Virus record (IMG/VR): IMGVR_UViG_3300020577_013934
Span: 1 to 64,000 of that record
Length of the DNA: 64,000 nt
Source of the DNA: a virus
Taxonomy: Duplodnaviria; Caudoviricetes
Strand: one strand, 5' to 3'
A program made the translations under genes and the position numbers. Below are positions 9,993 to 27,150 of the stretch, piece after piece. How positions within the stretch are numbered: position 1 is the stretch's first letter; the number at the start of each line of letters is the position of its first letter. The notes beneath the pieces were generated by a model. It was not told the DNA's origin. It worked only from the letters and a program-made list of their open reading frames with translations, and did no database searches.

Positions 9993-10076
9993 GTTCTCCG
10001 CGCGGATGAACAACGCGACACAAGCCTTTCGATATGCTCGCAAGATGCGTTTCACGTCGTAGGTTGAGAGGGTGTC

Positions 10077-10108
10077 CCCGGGTCGTGAGACCCGGGGGCT
10101 TTTCTTTT
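10077..10108 (+). terminator. Rho-independent terminator
   Basis: CCCCGGGTC-GTGA-GACCCGGGG followed by CTTTTCTTTT. Confidence 0.85.
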
Positions 10109-10125
10109 GGCCGCCGTTTACCGTG

Positions 10126-11864: not shown

Positions 11865-11956
11865 ACTCAAGTGTAAGCAGCTCCAATCTTTTGCGACCTA
11901 TGTTCTGTATGTCGCTTGGACCTTCGTCTGTTGCGTATATTTCACAAGGAGTCTTC

Positions 11957-12511
11957 ATGCGCCTCATCGAGACGATCAAAAGCCGTACAGCACTTGCCAT
12001 TGGCGCAGCGATGCGCAACGCGCTCAATGAACTTCTTCCTATTGGTCGTGCTTCGCTGAACATCAAGCACCAGCGTGTACGCCGTAAAGGTGAACTCTAC
12101 GTCCTGGAAGATGTGGGGCCTGAAGAGAAGGTATGGAATCTCATCACCAACGCAGGGCGCGACTACCTGCATCTTCAGGGTTACGGGACGGCAGGGCTCG
12201 GAACCAACGGGCTGAACTACATCGCGCTGTCGAATGACACTGTTACGGAAACGTCAGCATCAACCACGCTGTCCAACGAGATCACGCTCAATGGTCTTGG
12301 GCGTGCGCAAGGGACATATGCCCATACGGCAGGAACCAACACAACGACACTCTCGCGTGTGTTTACAGCGTCTGGTACTCAAAGCGCACAGAAAGCAGCT
12401 CTTTTCACGGCTTCTTCGTCAGGCACGATGAACCACGTCCTCGGATTTACGCAGCGTTCTTTGATCTCGGGGGACACGTTGTCTCTCACATTCACGATTA
12501 CATTGGGTTGA
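11957..12511 (+). CDS. Putative tail/baseplate-associated structural protein
   Basis: AAGGAG SD; NLITNAG, YIALS, LFTASSSGTM and GDTLSLTFTI motifs typical of phage tail-fibre-associated proteins. Confidence 0.7.
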   Translation: MRLIETIKSRTALAIGAAMRNALNELLPIGRASLNIKHQRVRRKGELYVLEDVGPEEKVWNLITNAGRDYLHLQGYGTAGLGTNGLNYIALSNDTVTETSASTTLSNEITLNGLGRAQGTYAHTAGTNTTTLSRVFTASGTQSAQKAALFTASSSGTMNHVLGFTQRSLISGDTLSLTFTITLG

Positions 12512-12513
12512 TC

Positions 12514-12903
12514 ATGGTTGTGTCCGAGATCTACGGTTTATGGCACAAAGCAAACATCGAAAACGCCGCAGGCTTGGTTGTCCTTACACCCAGCGGTGTT
12601 GTGGTTTGGTGGGTAGATGGTGTGCTCGAACAGATTGAGGGGGGGACTGTCGTCGAGGCGATTCGCATCGCTTATGGCGAGCAGTACGTTGCGCGTGAGA
12701 CACAACTGCTCCAGGTTGTGCGATACATGATCAAAGAAACGTCCTCGGATGAACCCAAAGGGTTCGCGTATTGTTTTCCTGGTGCGCAAGTCGTCATCGC
12801 TTGGAACGACAAGACGCTTGAGGTGTGGGACAAAGATGCAAAACTGGATGCGGTTCTCGCCCAGTATGCTTTTCAATTTACTTTCCAGTGTTTGGACCAA
12901 TGA
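12514..12903 (+). CDS. Hypothetical protein
   Basis: 129-aa ORF tightly packed in the operon. Confidence 0.7.
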   Translation: MVVSEIYGLWHKANIENAAGLVVLTPSGVVVWWVDGVLEQIEGGTVVEAIRIAYGEQYVARETQLLQVVRYMIKETSSDEPKGFAYCFPGAQVVIAWNDKTLEVWDKDAKLDAVLAQYAFQFTFQCLDQ

Positions 12904-14030
12904 ACACCATCACCACGCAGAAGTCGCGTTCCAATCCTTCCGCTATCACCGCTACACAGCTTGCTGCGATTGACGCTGTGCGGGGAATCGATCGGCTGTT
13001 ACCTATTATGCACGGTCGGCGCGTGGTTGGCGCGACTTTTGCGCCTCCTTGGTGGCTTTGTGCCACTAAGCCGGAGTTGTTTCCCGATGATGTGTTGTTT
13101 AAACCCCTCGATATGAGTTTGGAGCAATATCAGAAGTGGGCGGGGTTTCTGTCGTACGACGCGATTATCAACGCGATCAGCACGAATGGGGCTTTTTTTC
13201 CTGCGAAGTTCTCGAAGGGCGCGACAACAGCACCAGTGGCGAACAACTGGTACGATCTTTGGCCTGTCGGAGGCTCTCCGGCTGCGGGTGCTTATGCAGG
13301 CGCCGCTTTCACCGCCGTGCAATTCTCGGACGCCACATCTGGCGCCCTTTATCACGCAGGAAACCAGTCACCAAGTACCAAACACTTGATCTCGATGGAT
13401 GCGCGCTCGACGGGTGGTACTCCAACGTTGATTCTGTATGATCGCGTTCTGACATACGAGGCGTGCACGTTTAACGCAAGCGTCAATCAAGCGATGACGA
13501 ATACGCTTGCCGCTCAGCGCTACATCAGCTCGGGTCAACCGGGGTTGAAGATCATCACGACGTGTCAGACTGTATTCGGCGCAACAGCCTCGAACTTCAC
13601 ACAGCTTCAGTACACTGATCAAGCTGGAAACACGCTCCAATCTATGCCCGTGGCCGCGTTTAACGCGATCATTGTCAGCGCAGCGGCGCCAACGACCACG
13701 CTTGGGGCCCGTGTTGTTTCACCCAGCAACACAGCTGCAACTTTGACGCAAGGTCCGTTCATGCCCCTGGCAGTTGGCGACGGAGGTGTTCGCTTGATTG
13801 CCAACTATACTACGTCGGCGGCAAACACTGGGACCATGGCGTTTGTTCTGGGGGCCCCTCTGGCGACGATTCCAATTCAGGTGGCGGGCGTGACCACCCT
13901 CATTGACATGGTTCAGCAACTTATTGGGTTGTACCGAGTCTTCGATGGCGCTTGTTTGTCTTTCCTTGCCTTTTTTCCGGCCGCTACTGCATCTACTTTC
14001 GACGGGTCCGTTAACTTTGCTTGGGGCTAA
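12900..14030 (+). CDS. Putative virion structural protein (beta-rich)
   Basis: ATGA coupling; 376 aa. Confidence 0.8.
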   Translation: MNTITTQKSRSNPSAITATQLAAIDAVRGIDRLLPIMHGRRVVGATFAPPWWLCATKPELFPDDVLFKPLDMSLEQYQKWAGFLSYDAIINAISTNGAFFPAKFSKGATTAPVANNWYDLWPVGGSPAAGAYAGAAFTAVQFSDATSGALYHAGNQSPSTKHLISMDARSTGGTPTLILYDRVLTYEACTFNASVNQAMTNTLAAQRYISSGQPGLKIITTCQTVFGATASNFTQLQYTDQAGNTLQSMPVAAFNAIIVSAAAPTTTLGARVVSPSNTAATLTQGPFMPLAVGDGGVRLIANYTTSAANTGTMAFVLGAPLATIPIQVAGVTTLIDMVQQLIGLYRVFDGACLSFLAFFPAATASTFDGSVNFAWG

Positions 14031-14033
14031 TCT

Positions 14034-15338
14034 GTGCCGCGTATTCGAGGCTATCCTGGCGGAACGCTGATCCTCTCGTTTGATAGAGGCTTCGTCGGGT
14101 GGTCTGAACGACGCGGAGATATGTTCGTAGGCAACCAAGGTGTGCCTGCGTCGAGCACGTACAAGTATCGGTTGCCGCTAAAGTCGCCGAACTCAACGAA
14201 TTACAACGAAGCCGTTAATGAAACGCTGACGCTGTCAGGCGCTTTGTTGACGAAGCTTGACGCCCTCCAGGGCCTTAATGCGTCCGTCGCTTTCAGCGAA
14301 GGTTTGGTTGTTCTTTATTCAGCCGTTCGGGGACTTTCAGAGACATTGACATTGTCAGAAGCCTTGAGCGCTGAGCTTGTGTCTGTCCTTGCTCTAGCTG
14401 AAACGGTTTCCGGTACTGAGGCACTTAGTGCCGCGTTGGGTAGTGTTGTGTCACTAACGGAAACATTGACGACAAGCGAACTCCTCGCTGCTGTTGGCAG
14501 TGTGATTGTGGGCCTTGCGGAAACAATTTCCGCCGTTGAATTGTTGTCGGTAGTACGTGGGGTTGTAAGTTTTTTGGCAGACACTGTAACACTCGACGAA
14601 GTGACGAGTGTTAGCTACAGCGCTATTCCACAGATTTTGGAGACCATTGGTGCAACAGAATCGCTTGTTGGGCAATTCTCCACAACGGGTACTATTGTTG
14701 AAACTGTTAGCGTAACGGAAGCGTTTTCCGCTGGCATCTTGTTTTTGACTTCGGTCTTTGAGCTTGTAACTCTTACAGAAGACCTTGCTACTACTTTTGC
14801 AGGGTTTCAGACCTTCTTTGAACCTGTGCTTCTCGCGGAGACTTTGCAGACGTCACGAAGTGTGTCGGTGGTATTGAATACCGCCGTGCTTCTGCTGGAG
14901 ACGCTTGCAACTCAGCTATCGGTGGGCGTTCAGATGTCTGCTTTGGTTCCGTGGGCTACAACGCTACTGCCTTCGTTCTCTACTTTCGTTCCACTGGTTG
15001 AAACGTTGCCGTCTTTTGACAGTATTGAAGCGCGTTTAGCGGCTGCATCGCAGTTGTCGACGCAGGTACTGGTTGTTGATGTTTTGAGCTCTACGTTTGA
15101 CGGGTTTCAACTTCTTGAAGAAACGTTTCAGTATCAAGAGCAACTGGGTACGCGTTACACCATTACGCTTCCGTTGGTTGTAGGTGTTGGCTGGTACGCC
15201 GACGTGGATGGATTTAGCTTGCGTTCGTCCACGACGCGAAAGCTGGATTCTGGCGAAGCTCCATTGCGAACAAGTGGAGGGCATTTAATCCTTCCTGTTC
15301 TCAAAAAGCCTATTCGCAAGTTGAAGGATGGTGCGTGA
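14034..15338 (+). CDS. Repeat-rich putative fibre protein (about 18-aa ET(L/I)xxxE repeats)
   Basis: About 20 imperfect repeats such as ETLTLSEALSAELVSVLALA. Confidence 0.75.
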   Translation: MPRIRGYPGGTLILSFDRGFVGWSERRGDMFVGNQGVPASSTYKYRLPLKSPNSTNYNEAVNETLTLSGALLTKLDALQGLNASVAFSEGLVVLYSAVRGLSETLTLSEALSAELVSVLALAETVSGTEALSAALGSVVSLTETLTTSELLAAVGSVIVGLAETISAVELLSVVRGVVSFLADTVTLDEVTSVSYSAIPQILETIGATESLVGQFSTTGTIVETVSVTEAFSAGILFLTSVFELVTLTEDLATTFAGFQTFFEPVLLAETLQTSRSVSVVLNTAVLLLETLATQLSVGVQMSALVPWATTLLPSFSTFVPLVETLPSFDSIEARLAAASQLSTQVLVVDVLSSTFDGFQLLEETFQYQEQLGTRYTITLPLVVGVGWYADVDGFSLRSSTTRKLDSGEAPLRTSGGHLILPVLKKPIRKLKDGA

Positions 15339-15892
15339 TGGCTACGGGTGTGCGGATCTACTGGGAAGCCGATACAGACCCTGATGTGCAGAATTACGAG
15401 ATTCGTCGAGGGCCGCAAGAGGGGCAACCTATTGTCCTGTTGCAGGTCGTTCCTCATGCGATTCCGGGCCTTAATTGGTCTGCGACGAAAAATAGATTCT
15501 TTTACGACGACCCACAAGGGGGTCCCGTGAACGTCTATCAGGTTACGGCTGTTTCTTCTGGTGGGGTGGCGATCGGCCAGACAGATGTCTTTACGCCGTT
15601 TGGTCCGACGGCTGCGACACCAATGAAGATTGCCGTGGATCACAACTATGGAGGGCCAGACGCTCTCCGGTTTGTGACCGAGAGTGGTGTTGGTATTCCA
15701 GACGCAGATGTGCGTGTGTACACCAAACCCGATTATGACGCGGGACGTTTTGCAGCGCCTATGTATGTTGTTCAGACAGATGACCAAGGACGCTGGCGCC
15801 GACCTGCGTTCTTGGATGCAGGGTTGGATTACGTCCTTTTGATGGAGAAACGTAGCGCTTACGTGAGTCAACCTACGCAGATCACTGTTTGA
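15338..15892 (+). CDS. Putative structural protein with Fn3/Ig-like and carboxypeptidase-regulatory-like domains
   Basis: IYWEAD..DVQNYEIRRG, YQVTAVS, GIPDADVRVY, TDDQGRW motifs. Confidence 0.7.
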   Translation: MATGVRIYWEADTDPDVQNYEIRRGPQEGQPIVLLQVVPHAIPGLNWSATKNRFFYDDPQGGPVNVYQVTAVSSGGVAIGQTDVFTPFGPTAATPMKIAVDHNYGGPDALRFVTESGVGIPDADVRVYTKPDYDAGRFAAPMYVVQTDDQGRWRRPAFLDAGLDYVLLMEKRSAYVSQPTQITV

Positions 15893-15942
15893 GGTTCAGG
15901 CACAATAGCGCTGAGCCGGCTGTTAATGCCGCGCGGGGAACT

Positions 15943-16017
15943 TGGCGGGACGGGAGGGAGTCGAACCCACGACCATCGGGTTAACGGCCCGATGCTCTGC
16001 CACTGAGCTACCGCCCC
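15943..16017 (-). tRNA. tRNA-Asn(GTT), CCA encoded
   Basis: Cloverleaf GGGGCGG/CCGTCCC; anticodon loop CC-GTT-AA; TTCGACT T-loop. Confidence 0.9.
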
Positions 16018-16129
16018 GAAAAGCGTTCGCTGCCGGAGCATTGGCCCCGGCGGTGCGATTCTTTGAGGTGGCGAGCAAGATGGACATGGATTCGTCTCTA
16101 TCACTCAAGATAGAGGGACGTAAATACGT

Positions 16130-16543
16130 GTGTCGAGCAAAAAACACGCCACACGCATTTACGTCACGGACGTGCCTTTGTGTTATTCTGTGTTCGTGAG
16201 CTACGCAGCCAACAAGCTCTACGTCGACGGACTGAAAGCCGAGTCTTGCACCGATTGCGGGCGCTCGTTCCCGTCGGACGCGATGGACTTTGACCATGTG
16301 CGCGGCGTGAAGGGCGCAAACATCTCGGACTTGCTTGGCGGCTCGCGAGCCCGGCTTGAAACAGAGTTGCTGAAGTGCGAGCTGGTTTGCGCGACGTGCC
16401 ACCGGCAGCGCGAGATGACTCGCCGGCTCGATGCGCATGTCGACGCCGCTGACGCATTTGACGCGGATGCGGCGCTACTTGAGGCGGGCGGACGCTTCGC
16501 GGGCCTGTTCGAGGCTAGAGCCGATACGCTTGAAAAGGGCTGA
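16130..16543 (+). CDS. HNH-like endonuclease (start uncertain)
   Basis: CTDCG..MDFDH...KCELVCATCHRQR motif. Confidence 0.75.
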   Translation: MSSKKHATRIYVTDVPLCYSVFVSYAANKLYVDGLKAESCTDCGRSFPSDAMDFDHVRGVKGANISDLLGGSRARLETELLKCELVCATCHRQREMTRRLDAHVDAADAFDADAALLEAGGRFAGLFEARADTLEKG

Positions 16544-16797
16544 TGGAGTATATACGTCATCCTCGGCGCGACCCTGGAGCACGGCCTCGGCCTTGGCGTG
16601 GCAGTCGTCCTCGGTGTCGCAGAGCGTGACGCCGTTGGCGGCAACGTAGCTCCCGTTGGGCATGTCCTCGCGGGGGTGGATGTGGTGGGCGTCGAGCGGT
16701 ACGCCCGTGGCGCCGCGTCGCGCAGCATGCGCACGAGCTCGGCGTGGAACGGGTTGCGCCAGCTGGTGGCGACGTAGATCTGGATCTTGTCGGTCAT
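16475..16797 (-). pseudogene. Chimeric deletion remnant: nucleoside 2-deoxyribosyltransferase-like N-terminus joined out of frame to an HNH C-terminus
   Basis: MTDKIQIYVATSWRNPFHAELVRMLRDA then, in another frame, GATGVPLDAHHIHPREDMPNGSYVAANGVTLC..CHAKAE. Confidence 0.65.
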
Positions 16798-16949
16798 CGC
16801 GCAAGGGCCTCCTTCGCCTTCTGTTTGTTCTTGAAGCACGTGCCGCACTTTACCTTGGATGCGTCGCGCACGAGGTTGCGGGGCTCGAAGTGGCCGCACT
16901 CCAGTCGGAGCCAGCGGCAGCCGCGTTCGTCGACGCCCACGGCGAGCAC
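16794..16949 (-). CDS. Small Cys-motif protein (ECGH...CGTC); start uncertain
   Basis: Open frame coupled to ATG 16797. Confidence 0.45.
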   Translation of the reverse strand: MLAVGVDERGCRWLRLECGHFEPRNLVRDASKVKCGTCFKNKQKAKEALAR

Positions 16950-17010
16950 GGCGCGCAGGGCCCCTGGAGCGAGGCCACCTGCATCGTGCCGGGATGCGAC
17001 CGGCTGGCCA

Positions 17011-17559
17011 TCAGCGCAGCAGGCCGTGCTTGAGCAGCACGCCGCGCACGACCGAGTGGAAGATCGTGTCCTTGAGGCGCTGCGCGGGCGGCAGCTGGTC
17101 GTGCGGCAGGAAGCAGGGGTGGGTCTTCTTGATCGGGTCCTCGACCTCGCCGTAGCTCCAGTCATGCTGCGCCTTGAACGTCAGCCAGCCCTCGTGGCTT
17201 GTCTCGGGCGAGTTGCCCGCGAGGATGCCCGTGACGCCGGAGCGCACGCTGTTGCGCAGTTCCTCGGGGCACTCCTCCCACGCCGGCTTGACGGCCTCGC
17301 CGAGCGCCTTGCGGTACTCGTTGTTGACGGTGTGCGCGGTCTTGGCGGCCAGCTCGATCACGTCCTGCTTGTCCATCGGTTCGGTCCTCTCGCGGTGCTC
17401 CACGAACTTGTGGAGGTACTCTCGTCGGTACGCTTCGAGCGTGGGGTAGTCAACGTTGAAGACCTTGGCGACGTACCGCACGTCGTCCCACGCCATGTCG
17501 CAGTCGAGCGAGGCGAGGAGCTGGACGCGGACGTGGCGCGGAATCTGGAGTCCGTACAT
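17011..17559 (-). CDS. RyR-domain protein
   Basis: PETSHEGW..K..HDWSYG..DPIKKTHPCFLPHDQLPPAQRLKD. Confidence 0.85.
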   Translation of the reverse strand: MYGLQIPRHVRVQLLASLDCDMAWDDVRYVAKVFNVDYPTLEAYRREYLHKFVEHRERTEPMDKQDVIELAAKTAHTVNNEYRKALGEAVKPAWEECPEELRNSVRSGVTGILAGNSPETSHEGWLTFKAQHDWSYGEVEDPIKKTHPCFLPHDQLPPAQRLKDTIFHSVVRGVLLKHGLLR

Positions 17560-17561
17560 GA

Positions 17562-17593
17562 TACTTGACCAAGTTTACCCCGTAACGGAAACT
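17562..17593. promoter_or_regulatory. Divergent promoter region with palindrome ACTTG-AC-CAAGT
   Basis: Between divergent genes 17559(-) and 17603(+); TTGACC-17-GAAACT. Confidence 0.6.
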
Positions 17594-17602
17594 ACTCCAA
17601 CC

Positions 17603-18160
17603 ATGAACCTCACCAACCAGCCCGCCTATCAGGCTCGCCACCCCAAGTCCGTTCTCGTCACGCCGGAGTTTCCGCACGGCGCGGCGGCGCTCAACGCGCT
17701 GTTCGCCAACGACGCGTGGGAGCGCGACGAGGACATCAACGACACGATCGGCGAGGAGGTCGATCTGTCCACGGACGAGGCTCTCAAGAACTTCCACGCA
17801 GGCCCCGGCGAAAAGACCAGCCATCGCCTGCGCTGGCGCGCGCCGATCGAGACGCTGCGCGGGCCGTGCTCGCTCTGGAAGGAGACGCACGAGGTGACCA
17901 GCACGCAGACGGCGCTCATGGCCACGCTGCGCGAGCGCCGGAACGAGGCGCCGCCTGCGTCCGTCGACGACGCGGAGCGCCCGGCCGAGGCGCCGCCGCT
18001 CCCGAAGTCCTATACGGCGTACAAGCTCGTCTGCGAGGTCGACAACCTGCTCGACGGTGACTTCCAGACGCTCACGCGCATCGCCGACCGCCACAACTGC
18101 TCGCTCGGCGCCGAGGCGCTGGGCGACAAGGTGCTGCTTCAGCTCGCGTTCGTGCGATGA
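17603..18160 (+). CDS. Hypothetical protein
   Basis: 185 aa, GC3 bias. Confidence 0.8.
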   Translation: MNLTNQPAYQARHPKSVLVTPEFPHGAAALNALFANDAWERDEDINDTIGEEVDLSTDEALKNFHAGPGEKTSHRLRWRAPIETLRGPCSLWKETHEVTSTQTALMATLRERRNEAPPASVDDAERPAEAPPLPKSYTAYKLVCEVDNLLDGDFQTLTRIADRHNCSLGAEALGDKVLLQLAFVR

Positions 18161-18570
18161 TCACCCGCGACGCCCAGTTCTACCGTCGCGCGCTCGCCGA
18201 TCTCCAGGGCGCCAAGCCGACCCTCGCGTGGATCACGCGGTACTGGGCTCCCGACGGCTCCGACCCGGTGCGCCGCGCGTGGGACGCGTGCTGCGACCCG
18301 GCCGCGCTGCTCGACCTGCTGCGCGCGCTGCGGCAGCCCGTCTACGTCCGGCTCCAGGACCGCTACGTCGACGGGCAGGGCGTGCAGACGGAGGTCAGCG
18401 TGGCCGAGCGCTTCGCGGCGGTGACGCGCACGCCGGCCGGCTTCGAGATCGACCACCTCGGCCTGCTCACGATCGTGCTGCCCACGGTCTGCGACCTGAT
18501 CCGCTTCCTGCACCCGGCACCGAACCTGGACATGTTCCTCGACGGAACGCTTTCGCTCGGCGACGCCTGA
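18157..18570 (+). CDS. Hypothetical protein
   Basis: ATGA coupling. Confidence 0.8.
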   Translation: MITRDAQFYRRALADLQGAKPTLAWITRYWAPDGSDPVRRAWDACCDPAALLDLLRALRQPVYVRLQDRYVDGQGVQTEVSVAERFAAVTRTPAGFEIDHLGLLTIVLPTVCDLIRFLHPAPNLDMFLDGTLSLGDA

Positions 18571-18603
18571 CGGTATCTTCCCCAACCAGGAGACATCCAC
18601 ACC

Positions 18604-18801
18604 ATGCTCGAACTCAAGATCCAGCTCAAGATCGGCAAGAACGTCTACTCGATCTCCAAGGTCGGCGACAAGGTCACGTACTGGTCCCTCGCCAGCAACA
18701 AGAAGCTCGGGCGGCAGGTCGCCAGCAAGGTCGAGGACGCGGCGAGTCTCAAGAAGCTCCAAGCGGTCTACGCCAAGATCGAGAAGGCAGCTGCTGCCTG
18801 A
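18604..18801 (+). CDS. Hypothetical basic protein
   Basis: AGGAG SD; 65 aa. Confidence 0.8.
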   Translation: MLELKIQLKIGKNVYSISKVGDKVTYWSLASNKKLGRQVASKVEDAASLKKLQAVYAKIEKAAAA

Positions 18802-18839
18802 GAACTCGCGCGCCGCGCGCGGTACAAGGGTGCGTTCGA

Positions 18840-18884
18840 GCGTGTGGCTCGCGGGCATGGCGCTCGCGAGCCACACGCGTTTTC
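18840..18884 (+). terminator. 14-bp hairpin plus short U tract (terminator or RNase processing site)
   Basis: GCGTGTGGCTCGCG / CGCGAGCCACACGC then GTTTT. Confidence 0.6.
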
Positions 18885-18895
18885 GGAGGAACGCC

Positions 18896-19402
18896 ATGGA
18901 GAAGATCGAGTTCAACGGCACGACCATCGAAGCCGAAGTTCTGGAGCGTGACCACGACGGGCATCCGCGCCGCATCCGCTACGAGGGCGCGGACCTGCTC
19001 TACCGCGACTCGGTGAGGGAGCAGTATCGTTGGCTCATGGTGGTGGGGTCCTCGCCGCTCCAGGCGGCGCGCGAGCTGCTCAAGGCCGACTACGAGGCCG
19101 ACGTGAAGCTCATCGCGGACGACGTGCGCGAGCGCGTCGCCCGCGACGAGCTCGACTCGCGCTTGGCGATCGAGCGCTTCGTGCGTGAGAGCGTGGACGG
19201 TAGTTATCGCCTGTCGAACACGGCCGCGCAGCGGGAGATCCTGACGTACACGTCCAACCCTGCGGGAGCAGAGGAGGCTTCGGATCTCACGCTCGCGGCT
19301 TACGCCGCCTTCATCGCGGACGTGTACGATGCCCTTGGCGACATCGACGAGCTGTTGGCAGCGGAAGACGGAGATGACGACGATGAACACGACACGGCCT
19401 AA
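18896..19402 (+). CDS. Hypothetical protein
   Basis: GGAGG SD. Confidence 0.8.
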   Translation: MEKIEFNGTTIEAEVLERDHDGHPRRIRYEGADLLYRDSVREQYRWLMVVGSSPLQAARELLKADYEADVKLIADDVRERVARDELDSRLAIERFVRESVDGSYRLSNTAAQREILTYTSNPAGAEEASDLTLAAYAAFIADVYDALGDIDELLAAEDGDDDDEHDTA

Positions 19403-19718
19403 GACCCCGGAGCTCGACAAGCTCCGCGCGGCGAAGGAGGACCTCGACTACGTCAGCCTGAGCAACTTCCTCGACTGGCTCAAGGCCAACGGCTGGGAGA
19501 TCACCAGCCGCGACCCCACCCATCCCGTACCCACCAACTTCGACCAGCTCTTCGCGCGCTACGCGCAGATCGACATGTCGAAGATCGACACCGAGACCAA
19601 GGCGCTCGTCGACTGGCACGGCCACGCGCGCGTGGCGCCGACCGGGCCGCCGGCCGCGCCCCTCGTCGCGCTGGCCGTGGCCGCGACGCCGCCGCTCACG
19701 CCCAAGGAGAACCCGTGA
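19383..19718 (+). CDS. Hypothetical protein
   Basis: GGAG SD; GC3 bias. Confidence 0.75.
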   Translation: MNTTRPKTPELDKLRAAKEDLDYVSLSNFLDWLKANGWEITSRDPTHPVPTNFDQLFARYAQIDMSKIDTETKALVDWHGHARVAPTGPPAAPLVALAVAATPPLTPKENP

Positions 19719-20047
19719 CCAAGCCCAAGACCAAGCCCAAGACCAAGCCGCCCACCCGCTACGATCAGCCGATCAAGATCTTCTGAGCCGTCGTCGTGCG
19801 CTTCGGTCCGAAGTGCGAACGCGGCTTTCTCCCCGTCTACTCCGTCGCCGACGAGCGCGAGGCCGAGGACCTGCTCCTCGCCGCGTGCGGACGCAACCTC
19901 GACGGCGAGTTCGTGGCCAAAGAACTCGCCGCGCACCAGACCCTCGACAACCTCAAGGCGTTCAGCGACCGCCTCCACGCGGTCCACGCGCACCTGCGCG
20001 AGCGCGGCAAGTGCCGCTGCGTCGCCCCCGAGCCCCATACGCCGTAA
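19715..20047 (+). CDS. Gene with in-frame TGA (19784-19786); candidate selenoprotein or nonsense pseudogene
   Basis: AAGGAG SD plus GTG 19715; frame continues after TGA to TAA 20047; SECIS-like hairpin 19798-19816. Confidence 0.6.
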
Positions 20048-20111
20048 ACCTCCGGGCGGGGCAGGGTACAAGTACATAGACAGGAAGTACTGCCCCTCCA
20101 AGGAGTTCACC

Positions 20112-20948
20112 ATGAAGCAGCTCATCAAGAAGATCTTCGGCCTCTGGATTCTCTGCGCCCTGCTTGCCGCGTGCGGCGCGGCGGTCGGTGCCGGCGGCGA
20201 CGCCAGCGCCGAGCAGCAGACGCTCGTGACCCCCGACGGCGCCGGCCCCGTGGCCGACGCCGCCCAGCCCACCGACGACGCCGCCCTCGCGGACGACGCC
20301 GTCACCCTCGGCGACGCCGCGCCCGTGGGCGACGGCGCGCAACCCGGCGCCGACGCGAGCGACGCCGCCGTCTCCACGGACGGGGCGCCCCGCGCCGACG
20401 CCTTCGACGAGTCGCCCGCCGTCTGCGGCGGGTGCTTCCTCGGCGCCGCGTGCGTGCCGTCCACGCCCATGGCGTGCGGCTCGAACTCGGCGTGCGTGCG
20501 CTGCCCGACGCCGCGCGTGCCCGAGTGCCAGGAGGCGACCTGCACCGACGGCGCGTGCGGCATCCGCAACCGGCCCAACGGCACGGGCTGCACCGGCGGC
20601 GTCTGCGTGGCCGGCGCGTGCTACGCGTGCGGCACCAGCGACAACGAGTGCTGCCCCGCCGGCAACCGCTGCAACCCCGGCCTGACGTGCGTCGCCGCCA
20701 CGGGCAGCACGTTCCAGTACTGCACGGGCTGCGGCGCCGCCGGGCAGGCGTGCTGCGGCTCCGGCGTGGGTACCGTGACCAGCGGCGGCAGCATGCCCGT
20801 CGCCCGCAACCCGGGCGGCACGTGCAACGCGGGTCTGTCCTGCAACGCCGAGGGCGCGTGCACGTGCGGCGGCCTCGGCGAGGCGTGCTGCACGGGCTTC
20901 ACGTGCCGCGAGGGTCGCTGCCGCCACGACGGGACGTGCGGGGTCTGA
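20112..20948 (+). CDS. Cys-rich lipoprotein of myxobacterial type
   Basis: Signal peptide with lipobox LAAC(21); D/A-rich linker; 30 Cys in the C-terminal domain with CGxxG(Q/E)xCC repeats. Confidence 0.85.
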   Translation: MKQLIKKIFGLWILCALLAACGAAVGAGGDASAEQQTLVTPDGAGPVADAAQPTDDAALADDAVTLGDAAPVGDGAQPGADASDAAVSTDGAPRADAFDESPAVCGGCFLGAACVPSTPMACGSNSACVRCPTPRVPECQEATCTDGACGIRNRPNGTGCTGGVCVAGACYACGTSDNECCPAGNRCNPGLTCVAATGSTFQYCTGCGAAGQACCGSGVGTVTSGGSMPVARNPGGTCNAGLSCNAEGACTCGGLGEACCTGFTCREGRCRHDGTCGV

Positions 20949-20949
20949 C

Positions 20950-21447
20950 ATGAAGCTGGAAGCCGCCTGCGACAACCCGCTCTGCCCCGCGAAGTACCGC
21001 ATCACCTTCGCGCCCCACCCCAACGCCGACGACATGTTCACCCCGATGCGCGAGGCGGGGTGGCACGTCGGTCCCCACGGCGAGACCGTGCTCTGCCCTG
21101 AGCACGCGCCGCCCAAGCCCGCACCCACGGGCAAGACCGTCAAGCTGCTCGCGCAGCGCTGGACCGAGCACGAGCGCGGCTGGGGCTCGCGCCCCGACGG
21201 CGTGACGCCCCACCTCGATCAGGCGTCGCGCCTCGCGTACATCCGCGAGTTCAACGCGACGCACAACACCGCGAAGACCGCGCCCGACGAGTACACGCAG
21301 TTCGACGGCGACCCGGTGTGGATCGACGTGCCCGAGGGCGGAGAGATCCACGCCAAGGTCCTCGCGACGCTGGCCGGGGGCAAGCCGCTCTGGGTCCACT
21401 CGGTCCACCAGGACAAGGACACCGGCGCGTGGACGGTCAAGCTCTAG
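20950..21447 (+). CDS. Hypothetical protein
   Basis: 165 aa; QRWTEHERGWGSRPDG motif. Confidence 0.8.
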   Translation: MKLEAACDNPLCPAKYRITFAPHPNADDMFTPMREAGWHVGPHGETVLCPEHAPPKPAPTGKTVKLLAQRWTEHERGWGSRPDGVTPHLDQASRLAYIREFNATHNTAKTAPDEYTQFDGDPVWIDVPEGGEIHAKVLATLAGGKPLWVHSVHQDKDTGAWTVKL

Positions 21448-21725
21448 CCCGCGCCAAGCAGATCGCCGCCGAGGTGCGCGCGTGGCTCGCCACGTACCAC
21501 TGCCTCGGCGGCGAGCAGTTTCACCTCGGCCCCGAGGGCAGCGGCGTCGTCCTCGTCATGGACTTCGCCGCCTGCCCGATCGTCGGGTACCTCGACCAGT
21601 ACGGGCACGCCGAGCTGGTCAACGACCTCTTTCGACGCCTCGACAAGATGGGCCTGTACGTGAAGCGCGGGCCCGTCTTCTCGACGCTCCACGTCTTCGA
21701 CAAGTCCGACCTTCCACCCGCGTGA
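21429..21725 (+). CDS. Hypothetical protein
   Basis: GTG 21429; GC3 bias. Confidence 0.65.
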   Translation: MDGQALARAKQIAAEVRAWLATYHCLGGEQFHLGPEGSGVVLVMDFAACPIVGYLDQYGHAELVNDLFRRLDKMGLYVKRGPVFSTLHVFDKSDLPPA

Positions 21726-21774
21726 CACGCTTACTTACGCCGTAACGCCACACCTAACACGGAGCACACAACCC

Positions 21775-22251
21775 ATGTCCAACAGGATCGTCTACATCAT
21801 GCGCGGCCTCCCCGGCTCGGGGAAGTCGACCATGGCCAAGAACATGGCCGGCGCGACCGGCCGCGTCGTCTCGGCCGACGACTTCTTCATGGTCGACGGC
21901 GAGTACCGCTTCGACGTCGCCAAGCTCGGCGAGGCGCACGGCCAGTGCATGCGCCGCGCGATCGAGCACGTGCAGCGCGACGTCGAGGCCCCGCTCGTCG
22001 TCGACAACACCAACATCTCGAACGTCGAGATCGCGCCGTACGTGCTGCTCGCGCAGGCGTACGGCTGGTTCCCGCAGATCCTGACGCTCCACTCCGAGAG
22101 CGCCTACGTCGTGAGCGTCTGCGCCAAGCGCAACTCTCACGGCGTCCCCATCGAGCGCGTCACGGCGATGTTCGAGCAGCTCCTGCGGGAGCTGCCCGCG
22201 ACGCCGCCGTGGTGGAGCCAGCAGGTCCTGACGCCGGTGATCGGGTCGTGA
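21775..22251 (+). CDS. AAA_33 / N4BP2-like P-loop (polynucleotide) kinase
   Basis: MRGLPGSGKST, SADDFF, EAHGQC, VVDNTN. Confidence 0.88.
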   Translation: MSNRIVYIMRGLPGSGKSTMAKNMAGATGRVVSADDFFMVDGEYRFDVAKLGEAHGQCMRRAIEHVQRDVEAPLVVDNTNISNVEIAPYVLLAQAYGWFPQILTLHSESAYVVSVCAKRNSHGVPIERVTAMFEQLLRELPATPPWWSQQVLTPVIGS

Positions 22252-22919
22252 CGGCCGTCGTCAAGGCGTTCCGCCACCAGGACAAGCTGGTCTGCATTCG
22301 CGTCGACGAAGACCCGCAGGACCCGCGCAAGGAGTGGGACAACGCGGGGATCTTCTGGGCGTGGCACCGGCGCTATACGATCGGCGACAAGGACGAGGTC
22401 ACGCGCCACGGCAAGACGTTCCGCAAGTCGGACTTCGATCCGAGCGACTTCGGGAACTTCGGCGAGCTCGCCGACGCGATCTACGCGAAGCACCGCGCCG
22501 TGCTCGTGCTGCCGGTCTACTTGATGGACCACAGCGGACTGTCGCTCTCGGTGAGCGACTTCCGCGATCGGTGGGACTCAGGCCAGCTCGGCGTGATCTG
22601 GCTGCCTCGCGAGGGGCTGGCGGACATCGGCTACAAGATCGCGTCGAAGGGCGCGCTCGCGAAGGCCGAGGACCTGCTCAAGTCCGAGGTCGCCGTCCAG
22701 GACGCGTACGTCTCGGGCAGCGTCTTCGGCTGGGAGTCGTACGCCCTGGTCGAGCGCGACGGCGAGCCCGCCAAGGGCGAGTTCCTCGACTCGTGCTGGG
22801 GCTACTACGGGATCTCCGAGGTCCCGTACATGCTCGAATGCGCGCTCGGGTCGCCCGAGGCTGCGAAGGCGGCCGAGGAGCTCGACGAGCGCGACGCGCG
22901 CGAACTGGACGCTGCGTGA
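22248..22919 (+). CDS. Conserved hypothetical phage protein
   Basis: WDNAG..WHRRYTIGD, LPVYLMDHSGLSLS..F.DRWDSGQLG, DSCWGYYG. Confidence 0.85.
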   Translation: MTAVVKAFRHQDKLVCIRVDEDPQDPRKEWDNAGIFWAWHRRYTIGDKDEVTRHGKTFRKSDFDPSDFGNFGELADAIYAKHRAVLVLPVYLMDHSGLSLSVSDFRDRWDSGQLGVIWLPREGLADIGYKIASKGALAKAEDLLKSEVAVQDAYVSGSVFGWESYALVERDGEPAKGEFLDSCWGYYGISEVPYMLECALGSPEAAKAAEELDERDARELDAA

Positions 22920-22940
22920 ACTTCGGGTGGGTTCGGAGGC

Positions 22941-23171
22941 ATGAGCGACACCGACGCCAAGGCTTCCGAACCCACCACCCTCCGGACGCGCCAGCGCATC
23001 CGCAAGGCGATCGACAAGCACCTCGCCACCATGGAGACCTCCGAGAACCTCGACACGGCCGCGAAGCACGCGGCCATCGTCGGTTCTTTGGCCGCCACGA
23101 ACGAAGCGCTCGTGCCGATCTACCAGAACGTCGGTGGCGACCCCCGTGCTATCACGACGCCGATTGATTGA
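22941..23171 (+). CDS. Hypothetical protein
   Basis: GGAGG SD. Confidence 0.75.
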   Translation: MSDTDAKASEPTTLRTRQRIRKAIDKHLATMETSENLDTAAKHAAIVGSLAATNEALVPIYQNVGGDPRAITTPID

Positions 23172-23177
23172 CCTCCG

Positions 23178-23203
23178 GGAGTTTACCGCGTACGGTAAAC
23201 TCC
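23178..23203. promoter_or_regulatory. Palindromic operator GGAGTTTACCG-CGTA-CGGTAAACTCC directly before ATG 23204
   Basis: Core 20-mer is the exact reverse complement of 30438-30457. Confidence 0.75.
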
Positions 23204-23392
23204 ATGAAGGTCAAGCTACACAACAACCACCCGGGCGCCGTCGCCGCGACGGACAACACCCTCAAGACCCTCGGCGGTGGCGTCCACGAGCTCAAGCGCG
23301 ACCCGAACGGCAACGTCATCTTCGACGAAGATGGGTTTGCCGAGGTCGCGACCACCAACCCTGGCTTCTTCAAGTTCGCTTACACCCGCTAG
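23204..23392 (+). CDS. Small hypothetical protein; TAG stop with plausible readthrough to TGA 23419
   Basis: ...FFKFAYTR-TAG-GYVAEVRD-TGA immediately before tmRNA. Confidence 0.7.
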   Translation: MKVKLHNNHPGAVAATDNTLKTLGGGVHELKRDPNGNVIFDEDGFAEVATTNPGFFKFAYTR

Positions 23393-23425
23393 GGCTACGT
23401 GGCAGAAGTACGCGACTGACCCTTC

Positions 23426-23773
23426 GGGGGCGAAACGGCTTCGACGTGGAGAACTAGGTCGAGACTGCGTCACAGGGCTGGGCCACCTCACGGCTTACGT
23501 AGAAACGCGAACGACAACGCGATGCTCGCAGCGGCCTGATAAGCCCCTGCGACGTCCTCGGGGCAGGCCGGCTCGGGTCGGCTTCGGGGGCGCAATCAAT
23601 CCGAGCTAGCGAGCGCGGGCGGTGCGGCCGGCGCGGGCGAGACACGCAGCACCAGACCAGACGAGACCCCGCCCGTGGGGATGCTCGGCGGGAGAAGAGA
23701 CACGCGGGACAGGTGACGTAGACGTCCGGCGGAACGCTTCGCGGACCCGGGTTCGACTCCCGGCGCCTCCACC
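23426..23773 (+). ncRNA. ssrA: tmRNA (one-piece); tag (A)ANDNAMLAAA
   Basis: 5' GGGGGCGAAACGGCTTCGAC; 3' GGGTTCGACTCCCGGCGCCTCCACC; G3-U alanine pair; tag ORF 23507-23539 followed by TGA TAA. Confidence 0.95.
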
Positions 23774-23794
23774 CTTCGTTCGCAGCGACAGGAC

Positions 23795-23842
23795 CCGACG
23801 GCCGGCAGGAGTGGAGACCCTGCCGGCCGTCGGCTTTTCTTT
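23795..23842 (+). terminator. Rho-independent terminator after tmRNA
   Basis: 15-bp stem CCGACGGCCGGCAGG/CCTGCCGGCCGTCGG plus CTTTTCTTT. Confidence 0.9.
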
Positions 23843-23868
23843 GGCCGTTACGCCGTATACTTCGGGCC

Positions 23869-24639
23869 ATGAGCACCTTCCGTTTCGTCGACGCCGGCAT
23901 GTACTGCCTCCAGCAGACCGTCTCCGGGACGGGTGTGTTCAGCGGCGTGCGCCTCGGCTACGCGACGTACAGCTACAACTCGGGTGGGGCCCAATTCGAC
24001 GTGCGCTTCCCGCACCTCGGCACCGACGGCAACGCGTACAAGTTCCAGATGGACGCGCCGCCGAACACTGTGCCGGTGGCGAAGACGACCGCGTTTTTCG
24101 ACAAGTCGTCCAAGACGCTGCGCGTGCAGCTGCGTGGCACGTCCGCCGCGATCACGTCCACTGCGCAAGAGGTCGTCGACGCGATCAACGGGCTCGACCG
24201 CCCGCTTTACGGCGCCGCGCTCGTCGCGGGCGCGGTAATCCCTGCCAGCCTCGCGCCCGTCAACCTCGCGGGCGGCCTCGACCCCGACCTCGCGGCCGGC
24301 TACGCGTTCCCCAAGCTCGCGCCCCCGGCCAACACGAACGGCGGCCTGTTCTACTTCGACCAGAACCGTCCCTGGAAGCTCCAGACCGTGGGCGGCGCGC
24401 TCGGCGCAGACGCGACGCTCAAGGTGTCCATCGTCAACGTGGACAAGGCGCTGCGCGTCATCGGCACGGCGGCCGTGGTACTGTCGTCGCAGAACCTCAC
24501 GACCCCGTGGCAGCCGACCGGCACGCGCATCGACGTGCCGGTGATGCCGGGGCAGGCCGTGCAGGTTACCGCCAACACGCAGGGCACGGTCTTCGTGACG
24601 GCGGCCTCCCTCACCGCGATGGACAACATCTCCGACTGA
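23869..24639 (+). CDS. Putative virion structural protein, paralog of 28677-29471
   Basis: Shared VSGTGxFxG, TAxEVxxAxN, GGxDP, PPxNxNxG and PGQ motifs; TATACT 7 nt upstream. Confidence 0.75.
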   Translation: MSTFRFVDAGMYCLQQTVSGTGVFSGVRLGYATYSYNSGGAQFDVRFPHLGTDGNAYKFQMDAPPNTVPVAKTTAFFDKSSKTLRVQLRGTSAAITSTAQEVVDAINGLDRPLYGAALVAGAVIPASLAPVNLAGGLDPDLAAGYAFPKLAPPANTNGGLFYFDQNRPWKLQTVGGALGADATLKVSIVNVDKALRVIGTAAVVLSSQNLTTPWQPTGTRIDVPVMPGQAVQVTANTQGTVFVTAASLTAMDNISD

Positions 24640-24842
24640 TGGGCGACGCGAAGTTCACACCCCCGACCAACGCCTCGACGATCGCCGACGGGCCGTGCCC
24701 GTTCTGTTCCGGCACCTACGCCGTCTGCCGCGACAACGACACGGGCGACCCGTTCCTCACGCACACGATGGAGCCGTGCGCGCAGTTCGTCGCGTTCGAG
24801 CCCGACGTGTACCTGCGGTGCGTCCGCCAGGGCGTGAATTGA
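24639..24842 (+). CDS. Small Cys-containing hypothetical protein
   Basis: TGATG coupling; CPFC motif. Confidence 0.7.
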   Translation: MGDAKFTPPTNASTIADGPCPFCSGTYAVCRDNDTGDPFLTHTMEPCAQFVAFEPDVYLRCVRQGVN

Positions 24843-24873
24843 CAGCGCGCCCGGCGCTGCCTACGCTCCTCCC

Positions 24874-24894
24874 ATGATCACCGACCTGATGTAG
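24874..24894 (+). other. Leaderless minigene MITDLM-TAG upstream of and in frame with 24973
   Basis: TACGCT -10 six nt before ATG 24874; TAG 24892-24894; no further stop before ATG 24973. Confidence 0.4.
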
Positions 24895-24972
24895 CTGTCG
24901 CCGTCGCGCGGACCTCCCTCCGAGAGCCGGTCTCCCACCGCGTTCTCTCGTCCGAGTTCAGGAGGTTCCGTC

Positions 24973-25260
24973 ATGTCGAAGATCAAGCTGTTCATCAAGT
25001 CTCAGGCCGAGGCCCAGTCGTCGCACCGCCGCGCGCGTCCCCGCGACGCCGGGTGGGCCTCGAACCGCCTCGCGATCCGCCGCACCGCCCGCGCGGCGCT
25101 GCTGCTCTACGCGTTCTCGCGCGGCGTCGCGTACACCAAGCTGGAGCGCCGGGCGCACGAGCCACCGCCCGTGTGGCTCGCCGCCAAGCTCTCGGCGGAG
25201 CTGTGCGAGGCCCCCGTCACGGAAGGAGCGCTGTCCGCATGGACGACCGCTGCTACGTGA
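24973..25260 (+). CDS. Conserved phage hypothetical protein
   Basis: AGGAGG SD; IRRTARAALLLYAFSRGVAYTKLE motif. Confidence 0.8.
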   Translation: MSKIKLFIKSQAEAQSSHRRARPRDAGWASNRLAIRRTARAALLLYAFSRGVAYTKLERRAHEPPPVWLAAKLSAELCEAPVTEGALSAWTTAAT

Positions 25261-25547
25261 TCACGCGGTCCGACCTGCCCGTGCCCCAGCAGGCCGTGCA
25301 GGCGGCGCACGCCGCCCAGACCTTCGCCGGTCGCCACCCCGGCGACTACGCGCAGACCACGCTCGTCGTGCTCACCGTGCCCGACGAGCCGGCGCTCCGG
25401 GCACTGCGCGCACGCTTCGAGGCCACGCCCGCGCGCCTCGCCGCGTTCCACGAGCCCGACCGGGGCGGCGAGCTCACGGCGTTCTGCGCGGCCGGCGCCC
25501 CGGCGCGGCGGCTGTGCGCGCGCCTGCCGATGGCCTTCACGCCGTAA
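25239..25547 (+). CDS. Peptidyl-tRNA hydrolase, Pth2-like
   Basis: YVITRSDL..QAVQAAHA, LVVLTVPDE..L, FHEPD.GGELTA. Confidence 0.85.
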   Translation: MDDRCYVITRSDLPVPQQAVQAAHAAQTFAGRHPGDYAQTTLVVLTVPDEPALRALRARFEATPARLAAFHEPDRGGELTAFCAAGAPARRLCARLPMAFTP

Positions 25548-25567
25548 AGCCGCCTACGCTTTCGTGC

Positions 25568-25891
25568 GTGAAGGCATCGCGCTACGCGCTCGACCACCTC
25601 CCCGCCGACAACCGACGCCTCGCCCTGCGCCTCTACAAGACTGAGATCCGCGCGCTGCTCGACGCGGCGAAGGACCGGCCCTGCGCGCGCTGCCGACAGG
25701 CGTTCCCGATCTGCTGCATGCAGTTCGACCACCTGCCAGGCACGCGCAAGCGCTTCAACCTGAGCGAGGCGCGCGCCGGGTTGATCCCGCGCCACGTCGT
25801 GTTACAAGAGCTCAAGAAGTGCGAGGTCGTGTGCGCGAACTGCCACGCAATCCGCGAGGACGAGCGGCGGCGTGTGTATGTCGCTGCGTGA
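25568..25891 (+). CDS. HNH-like endonuclease, paralog of 16130-16543
   Basis: CARC..MQFDH...KCEVVCANCHAIR. Confidence 0.8.
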   Translation: MKASRYALDHLPADNRRLALRLYKTEIRALLDAAKDRPCARCRQAFPICCMQFDHLPGTRKRFNLSEARAGLIPRHVVLQELKKCEVVCANCHAIREDERRRVYVAA

Positions 25892-25892
25892 G

Positions 25893-25963
25893 CGCCCCGG
25901 ATGGGAGTCGAACCCATCTCACCGCGTTTAGAGCGCGGTGCCTGACCGCTAGGCTACCGGGAC
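25893..25963 (-). tRNA. Amber-suppressor tRNA (anticodon CUA), CCA not encoded
   Basis: GTCCCGG TA GCCT AGCGGTC AGGC A CCGCG CT-CTA-AA CGCGG TGAG ATGGG TTCGACT CCCAT CCGGGGC G. Confidence 0.9.
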
Positions 25964-26391
25964 TTGTTGCGCCCACAGTATGTGGGTAGCTGCGAGTCGC
26001 AGTTGGGACAGAGTAGACGGAGATTGCGGAGTCGGTTGTCGTTGTTGTGCCCGTTGATGTGATCGAGGCGCAGGGTAAGCGGCTTTCCGCGCCACGTATT
26101 GATCCCGCACAACGCACACACGTGTTTGAGTAGTCCCGCTTTCAGCAAGCGGCGCTTGAGAGGCCCACGGGCGTACGTGCTGTTGGCGACCAACACGGCT
26201 TTGAGCGGGGTGTCGGTGCTTCGGCGTGAGCGCCCGTGTGCTTTTCCAGTCCAGTGTGTCGTGTCGAGTTTACGCCGTTCGACTTCGCGTTTGACGTAGC
26301 GGTAGTTGCTTCCGACGATCGCGCGCCCGAGGGTACGTATGACGCCTGCGATGGAGACGTTCTGTCGTACGGCTCGCTCGAAGGCGTCCAT
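25954..26391 (-). CDS. HNH homing endonuclease
   Basis: SIAGVIRTLG..GSNYR; CALCG..LRLDHINGHNNDNRLRNLRLLCPNCDSQLPTY; stop lies inside the tRNA 5' end. Confidence 0.9.
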   Translation of the reverse strand: MDAFERAVRQNVSIAGVIRTLGRAIVGSNYRYVKREVERRKLDTTHWTGKAHGRSRRSTDTPLKAVLVANSTYARGPLKRRLLKAGLLKHVCALCGINTWRGKPLTLRLDHINGHNNDNRLRNLRLLCPNCDSQLPTYCGRNKSR

Positions 26392-26396
26392 TGGCG

Positions 26397-26912
26397 CTAA
26401 CCGAGGGTGACCCGTCCGCCGGGCGGGGTGCGGGGCATGTCGCCCGCCGAGGCGAGGCGCACGCGGCGCTGGAGGTGCTCGGTGATGTCCGTTTCGTTCT
26501 CGTACGAGACGACGAGCACGTCCTCGGCCACGGGCAGCACACCGCTCGTCTCCAGGTACGAGCGCACGAAGCGGCAGTTCTGGTAGTAGACGCCCAGGCC
26601 CCAACCGCCCTGGTCGCGGAACGCCCAGCCGATGCCGAAGAGCTTCTCCTGCCCGATGCCGGCGAGCGACGTGCGGTGGAGGTTCTCGACGAACGTCTGG
26701 AGCTGCGTCTGCATGCGCGGGGCGCGCGTCAGGACGCGGCGGATCTCGATGCCGCGCTCCAGGCCCGGCGTGAACGAGCGGCAGCCCGTCACCATGCCGA
26801 AGACGGCGTTCTGGCCCGCGCTGTCGTACTGGGGTCCGCCGAGGAACACCAGCGCGTTCTGGACCTCGAACGGCTGGATCTGGGAAGGGTCGATCTCGTT
26901 GTCGTTGCTCAT
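26397..26912 (-). CDS. Hypothetical protein, possibly tail-tube-like
   Basis: 171 aa; GVYYQNC...E.V.VSYE pattern; promoter upstream. Confidence 0.7.
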   Translation of the reverse strand: MSNDNEIDPSQIQPFEVQNALVFLGGPQYDSAGQNAVFGMVTGCRSFTPGLERGIEIRRVLTRAPRMQTQLQTFVENLHRTSLAGIGQEKLFGIGWAFRDQGGWGLGVYYQNCRFVRSYLETSGVLPVAEDVLVVSYENETDITEHLQRRVRLASAGDMPRTPPGGRVTLG

Positions 26913-26919
26913 GCCGACG

Positions 26920-26951
26920 ACACTACCACGACAGGGTAACTTGTCGAAGTA
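26920..26951 (-). promoter_or_regulatory. Phage promoter TTCGAC-AAGTTACCCTGTCGTGG-TAGTGT, leaderless
   Basis: 17-nt spacer; 7 nt to ATG 26912; similar to 5137-5166. Confidence 0.65.
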
Positions 26952-26954
26952 TGG

Positions 26955-27150
26955 AGTTGGGCCGGTCTCTCCCGGCTGTCACCCCGCCGATCACAGTTCC
27001 CTGGGGTTGGGACGTCTACGCGGATCAGTCGCGCTAACGGGGTTGTAGGCCCACTCTCCCGCTTCGGTTGTCGTCGAGACGGTGTCGCGCGAGGGGGGAT
27101 CGCGCGTGTCCGCCACGGGCCACTGACAAGAGTGGGTCCACGCTACCCGG
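26955..27150 (-). ncRNA. Candidate structured non-coding RNA
   Basis: About 200-nt intergenic stretch with long-range stem CCCACTCT/AGAGTGGG, hairpin CGCGCGA/TCGCGCG and terminal GCCGG-GAGAGA-CCGGC hairpin. Confidence 0.4.

Follow-up and report, generated by a model that had tools for sequence, protein, structure and literature searches.

In bacterial selenoprotein genes such as Escherichia coli fdhF, selenocysteine (Sec) is encoded by an in-frame UGA, and a hairpin bound by SelB, known as the SECIS (Sec insertion sequence), lies directly downstream of it within the coding region. The loop of the fdhF element presents G23 and U24, and its 5′ arm contains a bulged U (U17). The poxvirus glutathione peroxidases are captured host genes with eukaryotic SECIS elements in the 3′ untranslated region, and in phage Qβ a UGA is partly read through, extending the coat protein to A1; this readthrough inserts Trp without requiring a hairpin of its own, and the added part forms a domain apart. 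The minimal E. coli element, ggttgcaggtctgcacc, carries a GGUC loop (PMC3834832), and bacterial SECIS elements are described more generally as stems of 6–8 bp whose loop carries a conserved G some 20 nt past the UGA (PMC4605307). The constraints placed on bacterial elements (bSECIS) comprise a loop of 3–9 nt, an upper stem of 4–16 bp, a G within the first two nucleotides of the loop, a UGA-to-loop distance of 16–37 nt and a minimum free energy (MFE) of at most −7.5 kcal/mol (PMC13188914). Selenoproteins of eukaryotic viruses, the poxvirus glutathione peroxidases, are covered in two reviews (PMC6769590, PMC8310308). Sec insertion has so far been described for cellular genes and a few eukaryotic viruses; a 2026 review of the prokaryotic selenoproteome contains none of the words phage, virus or viral (PMC13188914), and a full-text literature search returned no report of a phage-encoded selenoprotein. 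The subject of the present analysis is such a candidate, a gene at positions 19715–20047 of a stretch of DNA from an uncultured phage, hereafter the window, which consists of bases 1–64000 of a 77.6-kb IMG/VR virus record (IMGVR_UViG_3300020577_013934; linear and by estimate about 45% complete) and has a GC content of about 70%. Comparison with its relatives suggests that the gene probably belongs to a phage selenoprotein family of unknown function that would be decoded by host SelB.

An initial annotation, made from the letters of the window alone, had already proposed a phage selenoprotein at this site. The layout that it described, an AAGGAG Shine-Dalgarno (SD) sequence, a coupled GTG start, 23 codons, a TGA and 86 further codons, holds at every position. 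The whole reading frame through the UGA amounts to 110 residues, and the locus is arranged as follows.

19704–19709, plus strand: SD sequence AAGGAG, 5 nt ahead of the GTG start (direct reading).
19715–19717, plus strand: GTG start, overlapping the TGA stop (19716–19718) of the upstream gene (GTGA coupling).
19715–19783, plus strand: N-terminal segment of 23 codons, MTKPKTKPKTKPPTRYDQPIKIF; the Lys/Pro-rich part is variable and the end conserved (RYDQ-PIKIF).
19784–19786, plus strand: in-frame UGA, the proposed Sec codon (residue 24); UGA in 47 of 47 stop-containing relatives.
19787–19797, plus strand: 11-nt spacer coding Ala-Val-Val-(Val), with Ala and Val each kept in 41 of 42 relatives.
19798–19816, plus strand: SECIS-like hairpin, with 5′ arm 19798–19805, loop 19806–19808 (or GGUCC, 19805–19809) and 3′ arm 19809–19816.
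19787–20044, plus strand: C-terminal 86 codons of the same protein, the family core (beta2, beta3 and three helices), with conserved Cys58 and a C-terminal CxC.
20045–20047, plus strand: TAA, the true stop (direct reading).
19329–19718, plus strand: upstream gene; in relative L007 its N-terminal ~50 residues form an in-frame fusion with the N terminus of the candidate selenoprotein.

Direct reading also confirms the annotated hairpin, an 8-bp stem that begins 11 nt after the TGA. Its arms are GCGCTTCG (19798–19805) and CGAAGTGC (19809–19816) around a GTC loop, or GCGCUUCG-GUC-CGAAGUGC in RNA form, and GGUC at 19805–19808 occupies +19 to +22 after the UGA, as had been stated, which is +22 to +25 when the U of UGA is counted as +1. 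On the latter count the stem begins at +15, and the element has the geometry of the fdhF type: an 11-nt spacer, a stem within the range of 6–9 bp and an apical GGUC with G and U at +23 and +24. It lies within all of the bSECIS constraints, with a loop of GGUCC or GUC, a stem of 7–8 bp, a spacing of 18–19 nt and a free energy of −11.4 kcal/mol. When folded as a single sequence, the region gave an MFE of −25.8 kcal/mol with z = −1.68, and 11 of 200 shuffles folded equally well. Taken alone, the window hairpin is not beyond chance, and its significance therefore rests on conservation in relatives.

Seven homologs emerged from a word-based search of proteins; for six the annotated start lies just past the UGA, and for one it lies further in. 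The DNA of relatives was taken from viral contigs, homolog-bearing assemblies, JGI metagenome contigs and one bacterial metagenome-assembled genome (MAG), and yielded 49 distinct 75-nt stretches; codon and start-codon counts were made on 42 sequences and hairpin counts on 47. The GC content of these contigs spans 34–71%, and the most distant proteins share 36–40% identity with that of the window. The codon at the column is UGA in 47 of the 49 fetched sequences, UGC in one and ACG in one, and UAA, UAG and UGG occur in none of the 49. Counted across IMG/VR, a degenerate nucleotide pattern encoding K-I-[FY]-x-A-V-x-V-x-[FY]-G gave 19 contigs with TGA at this position, none with TGY and the same 19 with TRR. 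The gene was found by tblastn in no cultured phage of INPHARED.

A hairpin of 5–11 bp is present in every UGA form (47/47). The loop begins at +22 or +23 in 38 of the 47 and contains GU in 42, and positions +22 to +25 read GGUC in 34 of 42 sequences. As to the bSECIS constraints, one of the two leading loop nucleotides is G in 44/47, and the MFE is −7.5 kcal/mol or lower in 42/47. In codon usage across the element, the Gly codon of the loop is GGT in 36/42 despite the high GC content, and the codon before it, whose third base takes part in the closing pair, ends in C in 40/42, with the remaining third positions nearly free. Covariation was assessed on 25 sequences, hand-picked as the class with a 4-nt loop. 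Paired cells in this set reached 95.4% against 70.8% in shuffles (none of 500 attained the observed value), the covariation score was 0.64 against 0.20, and five of the seven stem pairs were changed on both sides, for example CG 12/AU 6/GC 3 and GC 13/CG 11; when the register was slid, only 22–50% of cells were paired. Relatives differ in the residues that their 3′ arms specify (PKC, RTV, AKP, RSA), as would be expected under selection on the RNA. A minority of relatives (L050, L067, L069, L071 and L095) has the hairpin shifted by 2–5 nt, with a 5-nt loop of CGUGA or CGUGU, as in GGUACGG-CGUGU-CCGUACC within the first 40 nt past the UGA. A covariance model, R1, built without the window's own sequence, found the window site at 29.2 bits (E = 7e-8) as the sole clear match in the 64 kb, the runner-up scoring 12.8 bits and having no hairpin; by this model, the window holds no second locus of the same kind. 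An alignment of 42 diverse members diverged too far to serve in scanning a genome.

Homologs with a sense codon at the column provide a further comparison. A profile search of 1.84 billion representatives recovered 270 family members at E ≤ 0.001, most of which begin just past the UGA column and are therefore truncated gene calls. Among the listed matches that extend upstream of the column, the residues are Cys (6), Trp (3), Thr (2), Ala (2) and an unverified Gly (1). All three Trp entries translate only when TGA is read as Trp, that is, they are UGA forms called under genetic code 4; two have the usual GGUC hairpin, and the third, L047, a weak variant only. These database proteins are P0009, P0076 and P0127 (L018:332–802, L046:607–1161 and L047:61–450, respectively), and P0076 and P0127 read further TGAs as Trp, in a 3′ extension in the former and at codon 2 in the latter. 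Code-4 calling is in this respect an annotation artefact that hides UGA-containing genes of this kind. DNA was at hand for one Cys homolog (L019, TGC) and one Thr homolog (L020, ACG); both are single open reading frames (ORFs) and neither has a hairpin, the folding energies being −0.2 and −3.1 kcal/mol, respectively. The DNA of further Cys homologs was not found in IMG/VR or JGI contigs. Known bacterial selenoprotein genes likewise have Cys homologs that lack the hairpin.

The initial annotation had named three outcomes that would count against a selenoprotein, namely a sense codon in close relatives, an unconserved hairpin, and Trp, Arg, Gly or other non-Cys residues at the column. On the first two, the relatives keep the UGA and they keep the hairpin, with compensatory changes, except in the Cys and Thr homologs. 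On the third, Cys is the commonest residue, no Trp is genuine and no Arg was seen among aligned homologs; two Thr, two Ala and one unverified Gly entry do occur. Overall, the comparison supports the original proposal of a phage selenoprotein, and none of the named refutations applied.

The explanation that survives best beside a selenoprotein is Sec-independent programmed readthrough, whereby a near-cognate or suppressor tRNA would insert Trp, Cys or Arg at the UGA, the hairpin would act as a stimulator, and short and long products would be made in a fixed ratio. Evidence for in-frame reading suits this explanation, as it does not fix the residue inserted, and both the Thr and Ala homologs, which show that the fold does not hinge on the chemistry of that residue, and the lack of Sec machinery on the phage records searched and in the associated MAG are in its favour. 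The residues at the column argue the other way. Because Cys is the commonest true replacement and Trp never occurs, no genuine TGG homolog having been seen and all three "W" entries being TGA, Sec is favoured over near-cognate readthrough. In its spacing, the length of its stem and the GU of its loop, the hairpin furthermore matches a SelB-type SECIS, and we know of no bacterial system in which a hairpin stimulates readthrough of UGA. No opal suppressor tRNA was detected in the window or in related records. We therefore regard Sec-independent readthrough as unlikely.

That the UGA is translated through in one frame, with both sides under coding constraint, is supported by several lines of sequence comparison. 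The initial annotation had noted a typical codon bias past the TGA, and this is borne out, with third-position GC (GC3) in the single frame at 0.96 ahead of the TGA and 0.92 beyond it. On either side of the UGA, nucleotide conservation among the relatives has a period of three in a single frame. The segment before the UGA is mostly 11–30 codons long and ends in [PR][IV]KI[FY], its codons specifying P/R, I/V, K and I with third-base wobble and then F/Y; past it, codon +1 is Ala in 41/42 (GCC 14, GCG 13, GCA 10, GCT 4), codon +2 is Val in 41/42, with four codons in use, and codon +4 is Val in 40/42. Translation in the relatives starts at ATGA or TGATG overlaps, or after an SD. An AlphaFold2 model, computed from a 39-row alignment with Cys in place of Sec (mean predicted local distance difference test score, pLDDT, 90.1; predicted template modelling score 0.76), places residues 20–24 (IKIF-Sec) in a strand paired with strand 27–31 at a pLDDT of about 96. 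Relative L007 has a 60-residue N-terminal part, homologous to the window's upstream gene, joined in frame to ...RYDQRIKVF-UGA. At L007:2809–2991 the N-terminal domain of the upstream gene (TPELDKLRAAKEDLDYVSLSNF.DWLKANGWEI..DPTHPVP) is thus fused in frame to RYDQRIKVF-UGA; relative to L007, the window has an insertion of about 75 codons with a stop and a new GTG start, which split the fusion into two coupled genes.

These results bear on a second alternative, in which two cistrons are present: a leader peptide would end at the UGA and translation would restart at a nearby GTG, with the hairpin masking or regulating the restart or binding a phage repressor. Gene callers annotate the locus in this way, a GTG is found at codon +2 or +4 in 29/42 relatives, the hairpin begins at the last base of GTG 19796, and the N-terminal part varies in length. 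As the initial annotation had observed for the post-TGA part, no SD precedes GTG 19796, and among the relatives an SD-like motif is present in 4/42 only. The first four codons past the UGA include no ATG, GTG or TTG in 13/42; in these, the first possible start lies at codon 8–20, or is absent altogether (L018), and a start there would remove conserved strands. Codons +1 to +4 are constrained as protein, with their third positions free, and the stop is always UGA, even at 34–46% GC. Two separate cistrons are disfavoured because of the period-3 constraint, the missing restarts, the AlphaFold2 strand that brings pre-UGA residues into the domain, and the L007 fusion, to which the single ORFs of the Cys and Thr homologs may be added; we hold this arrangement to be quite improbable. 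A nonsense mutation, sequencing error, pseudogene or genome-wide reassignment of TGA, as a lone in-frame stop in a contig from a metagenome and the use of code 4 on relatives by some pipelines might suggest, is of negligible probability, since 47 distinct sequences from many samples keep the UGA, which excludes a nonsense mutation or read error. Reassignment was rejected on stop-codon usage: TGA is the normal stop and terminates 37 of the 49 likely window genes, the overlapping upstream gene included, and about two-thirds of the family genes themselves. Genes called under code 4 continue past additional TGAs and so acquire spurious extensions.

Pfam and PHROGs searches covering the read-through protein, the 83-amino-acid ORF and the neighbours gave no match for this gene, and a PDB sequence profile search gave nothing significant. 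Cys58 is conserved, and the C-terminal CxC is frequent and sometimes extended by a Cys-rich tail; together they hint at redox or metal chemistry, and Sec24 may perhaps have a redox or metal-binding role alongside them. The protein encoded immediately downstream (20112–20948, plus strand) is 278 amino acids long, contains about 30 Cys residues and a signal resembling that of lipoproteins (LLAAC), and has no Pfam or PHROG match.

A number of observations weigh against a selenoprotein. The predicted fold matches nothing solved (Foldseek against the PDB, best E 1.4; wide search with VIA-align, best Z 3.9), and the Sec would sit outside any recognisable redox motif. The occurrence of Thr and Ala, and possibly Gly, among the homologs indicates that neither Sec nor Cys is essential to the fold, as judged from the alignment. 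As to the hairpin, five of 47 loops lack GU, the bulged U of fdhF is absent from most members, stems being continuous in the window and most relatives (L050 alone shows a bulged U in the 5′ arm, judged by eye), and an Rfam scan of 15000–27000 up to E = 10 returned no SECIS family. The check for loss of the hairpin covered two sense-codon homologs only, with one of the six Cys homologs represented at the DNA level. The Sec machinery is a further difficulty. No tRNA-Sec was found in the phage record or in 15 related records of viruses, of which two are complete; the best "tRNA-Sec" matches are tRNA-Ser or tRNA-Leu with other anticodons; selB was not found in the phage record or five related records, nor selD in those five. 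Sec users account for only about 21.5% of sequenced bacteria (PMC5029168), and yet the UGA form of this family spans contigs of 34–71% GC. Finally, the one bacterial MAG with a family member (G006, Xanthobacteraceae; L028, the only true match in a bacterial genome, L029 having been a spurious motif match) is without selA, selB and tRNA-Sec and has tRNA-Ser(UGA) only. These absences from the MAG say little, because the family-bearing contig is phage DNA binned into it: contig C256 (67.8 kb; L089–L091) is phage DNA throughout the parts read and encodes a major head protein, a head morphogenesis protein and a RecE-like exonuclease, with nearly all genes on one strand. The presence of C256 in a Xanthobacteraceae MAG is either a weak hint as to the host or a binning artefact.

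Since no Sec machinery was found on the phage records searched, a phage selenoprotein must rely on that of the host. We infer that SelB binds the hairpin and that Sec is the residue inserted. In such a mechanism, ribosomes would initiate at GTG 19715 by coupling with the upstream gene and would translate 23 codons; once UGA 19784 is reached, the hairpin that lies 11 nt past it (7–8 bp, GGUC loop) would recruit host SelB·GTP·Sec-tRNA(Sec), Sec would be inserted in competition with RF2, and translation would carry on in frame to TAA 20045. Only a Sec-competent host with a supply of selenium would then yield the full-length protein; in any other, a 23-residue peptide would result.

So decoded, the gene would resemble the bacterial genes with a SECIS inside the ORF, of which E. 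coli fdhF is the example, in having its hairpin in the coding region directly past an in-frame UGA. Unlike bacterial selenoprotein genes, it is carried by phage genomes without Sec machinery of their own, and it encodes a new protein family with no Pfam, PHROG or PDB relative. It departs from fdhF in mostly lacking the bulged U and in the minority class of shifted hairpins with CGUGA or CGUGU loops, and from the usual bacterial Sec families in that some phage homologs have Thr or Ala instead of Cys. As with the poxvirus glutathione peroxidases, the virus would decode a UGA of its own through the host Sec machinery; unlike them, the phage element is of bacterial type and lies in the ORF, and no cellular homolog of the protein was found. 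With Qβ the family shares a phage UGA that would be partly read through to give a longer product, but here the UGA is internal to a single folded domain and is linked with a hairpin of the SelB type that covaries.

Several RNA features elsewhere in the window, and one in a related phage, were recorded in passing. A complete one-piece transfer-messenger RNA (Rfam RF00023, 84.8 bits, E = 3.6e-32; ARAGORN tag ANDNAMLAAA) is located at 23426–23774 (plus strand). A tRNA with anticodon CUA, of the amber-suppressor type and labelled "Pyl" by ARAGORN, lies at 25892–25963 (minus strand; 59.4 bits to the general tRNA model), and alongside it TAG still ends 8 of the 49 likely window genes. A tRNA-Asn(GUU) at 15943–16017 (minus strand) sits at the edge of a low-GC stretch, 10000–16000 (52–58% against about 70% elsewhere), which may be a mosaic or recently acquired segment. 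In G016, a related jumbo phage of 199.6 kb, ARAGORN reported a tRNA with a 4-base anticodon (ctcg) within a tRNA cluster (L115:2400–2477, L117:456–533), which could be a frameshift-suppressor-like tRNA or a miscall.

It seems fairly likely that this is a phage-only family with a new fold whose production depends on host SelB and tRNA-Sec as well as on selenium, such that an early gene would be gated by the selenium status of the host and productive host range tied to Sec-competent bacteria. If so, phages exploit a specialised recoding system of their hosts, and gene callers systematically truncate such genes or resort to code 4, most database entries for the family starting past the UGA. Genes of this type could mark Sec-competent hosts, and they would offer a compact natural cassette of UGA plus hairpin, in many variants, for the study of SelB specificity. 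For the phages themselves, selenium availability could then modulate gene expression.
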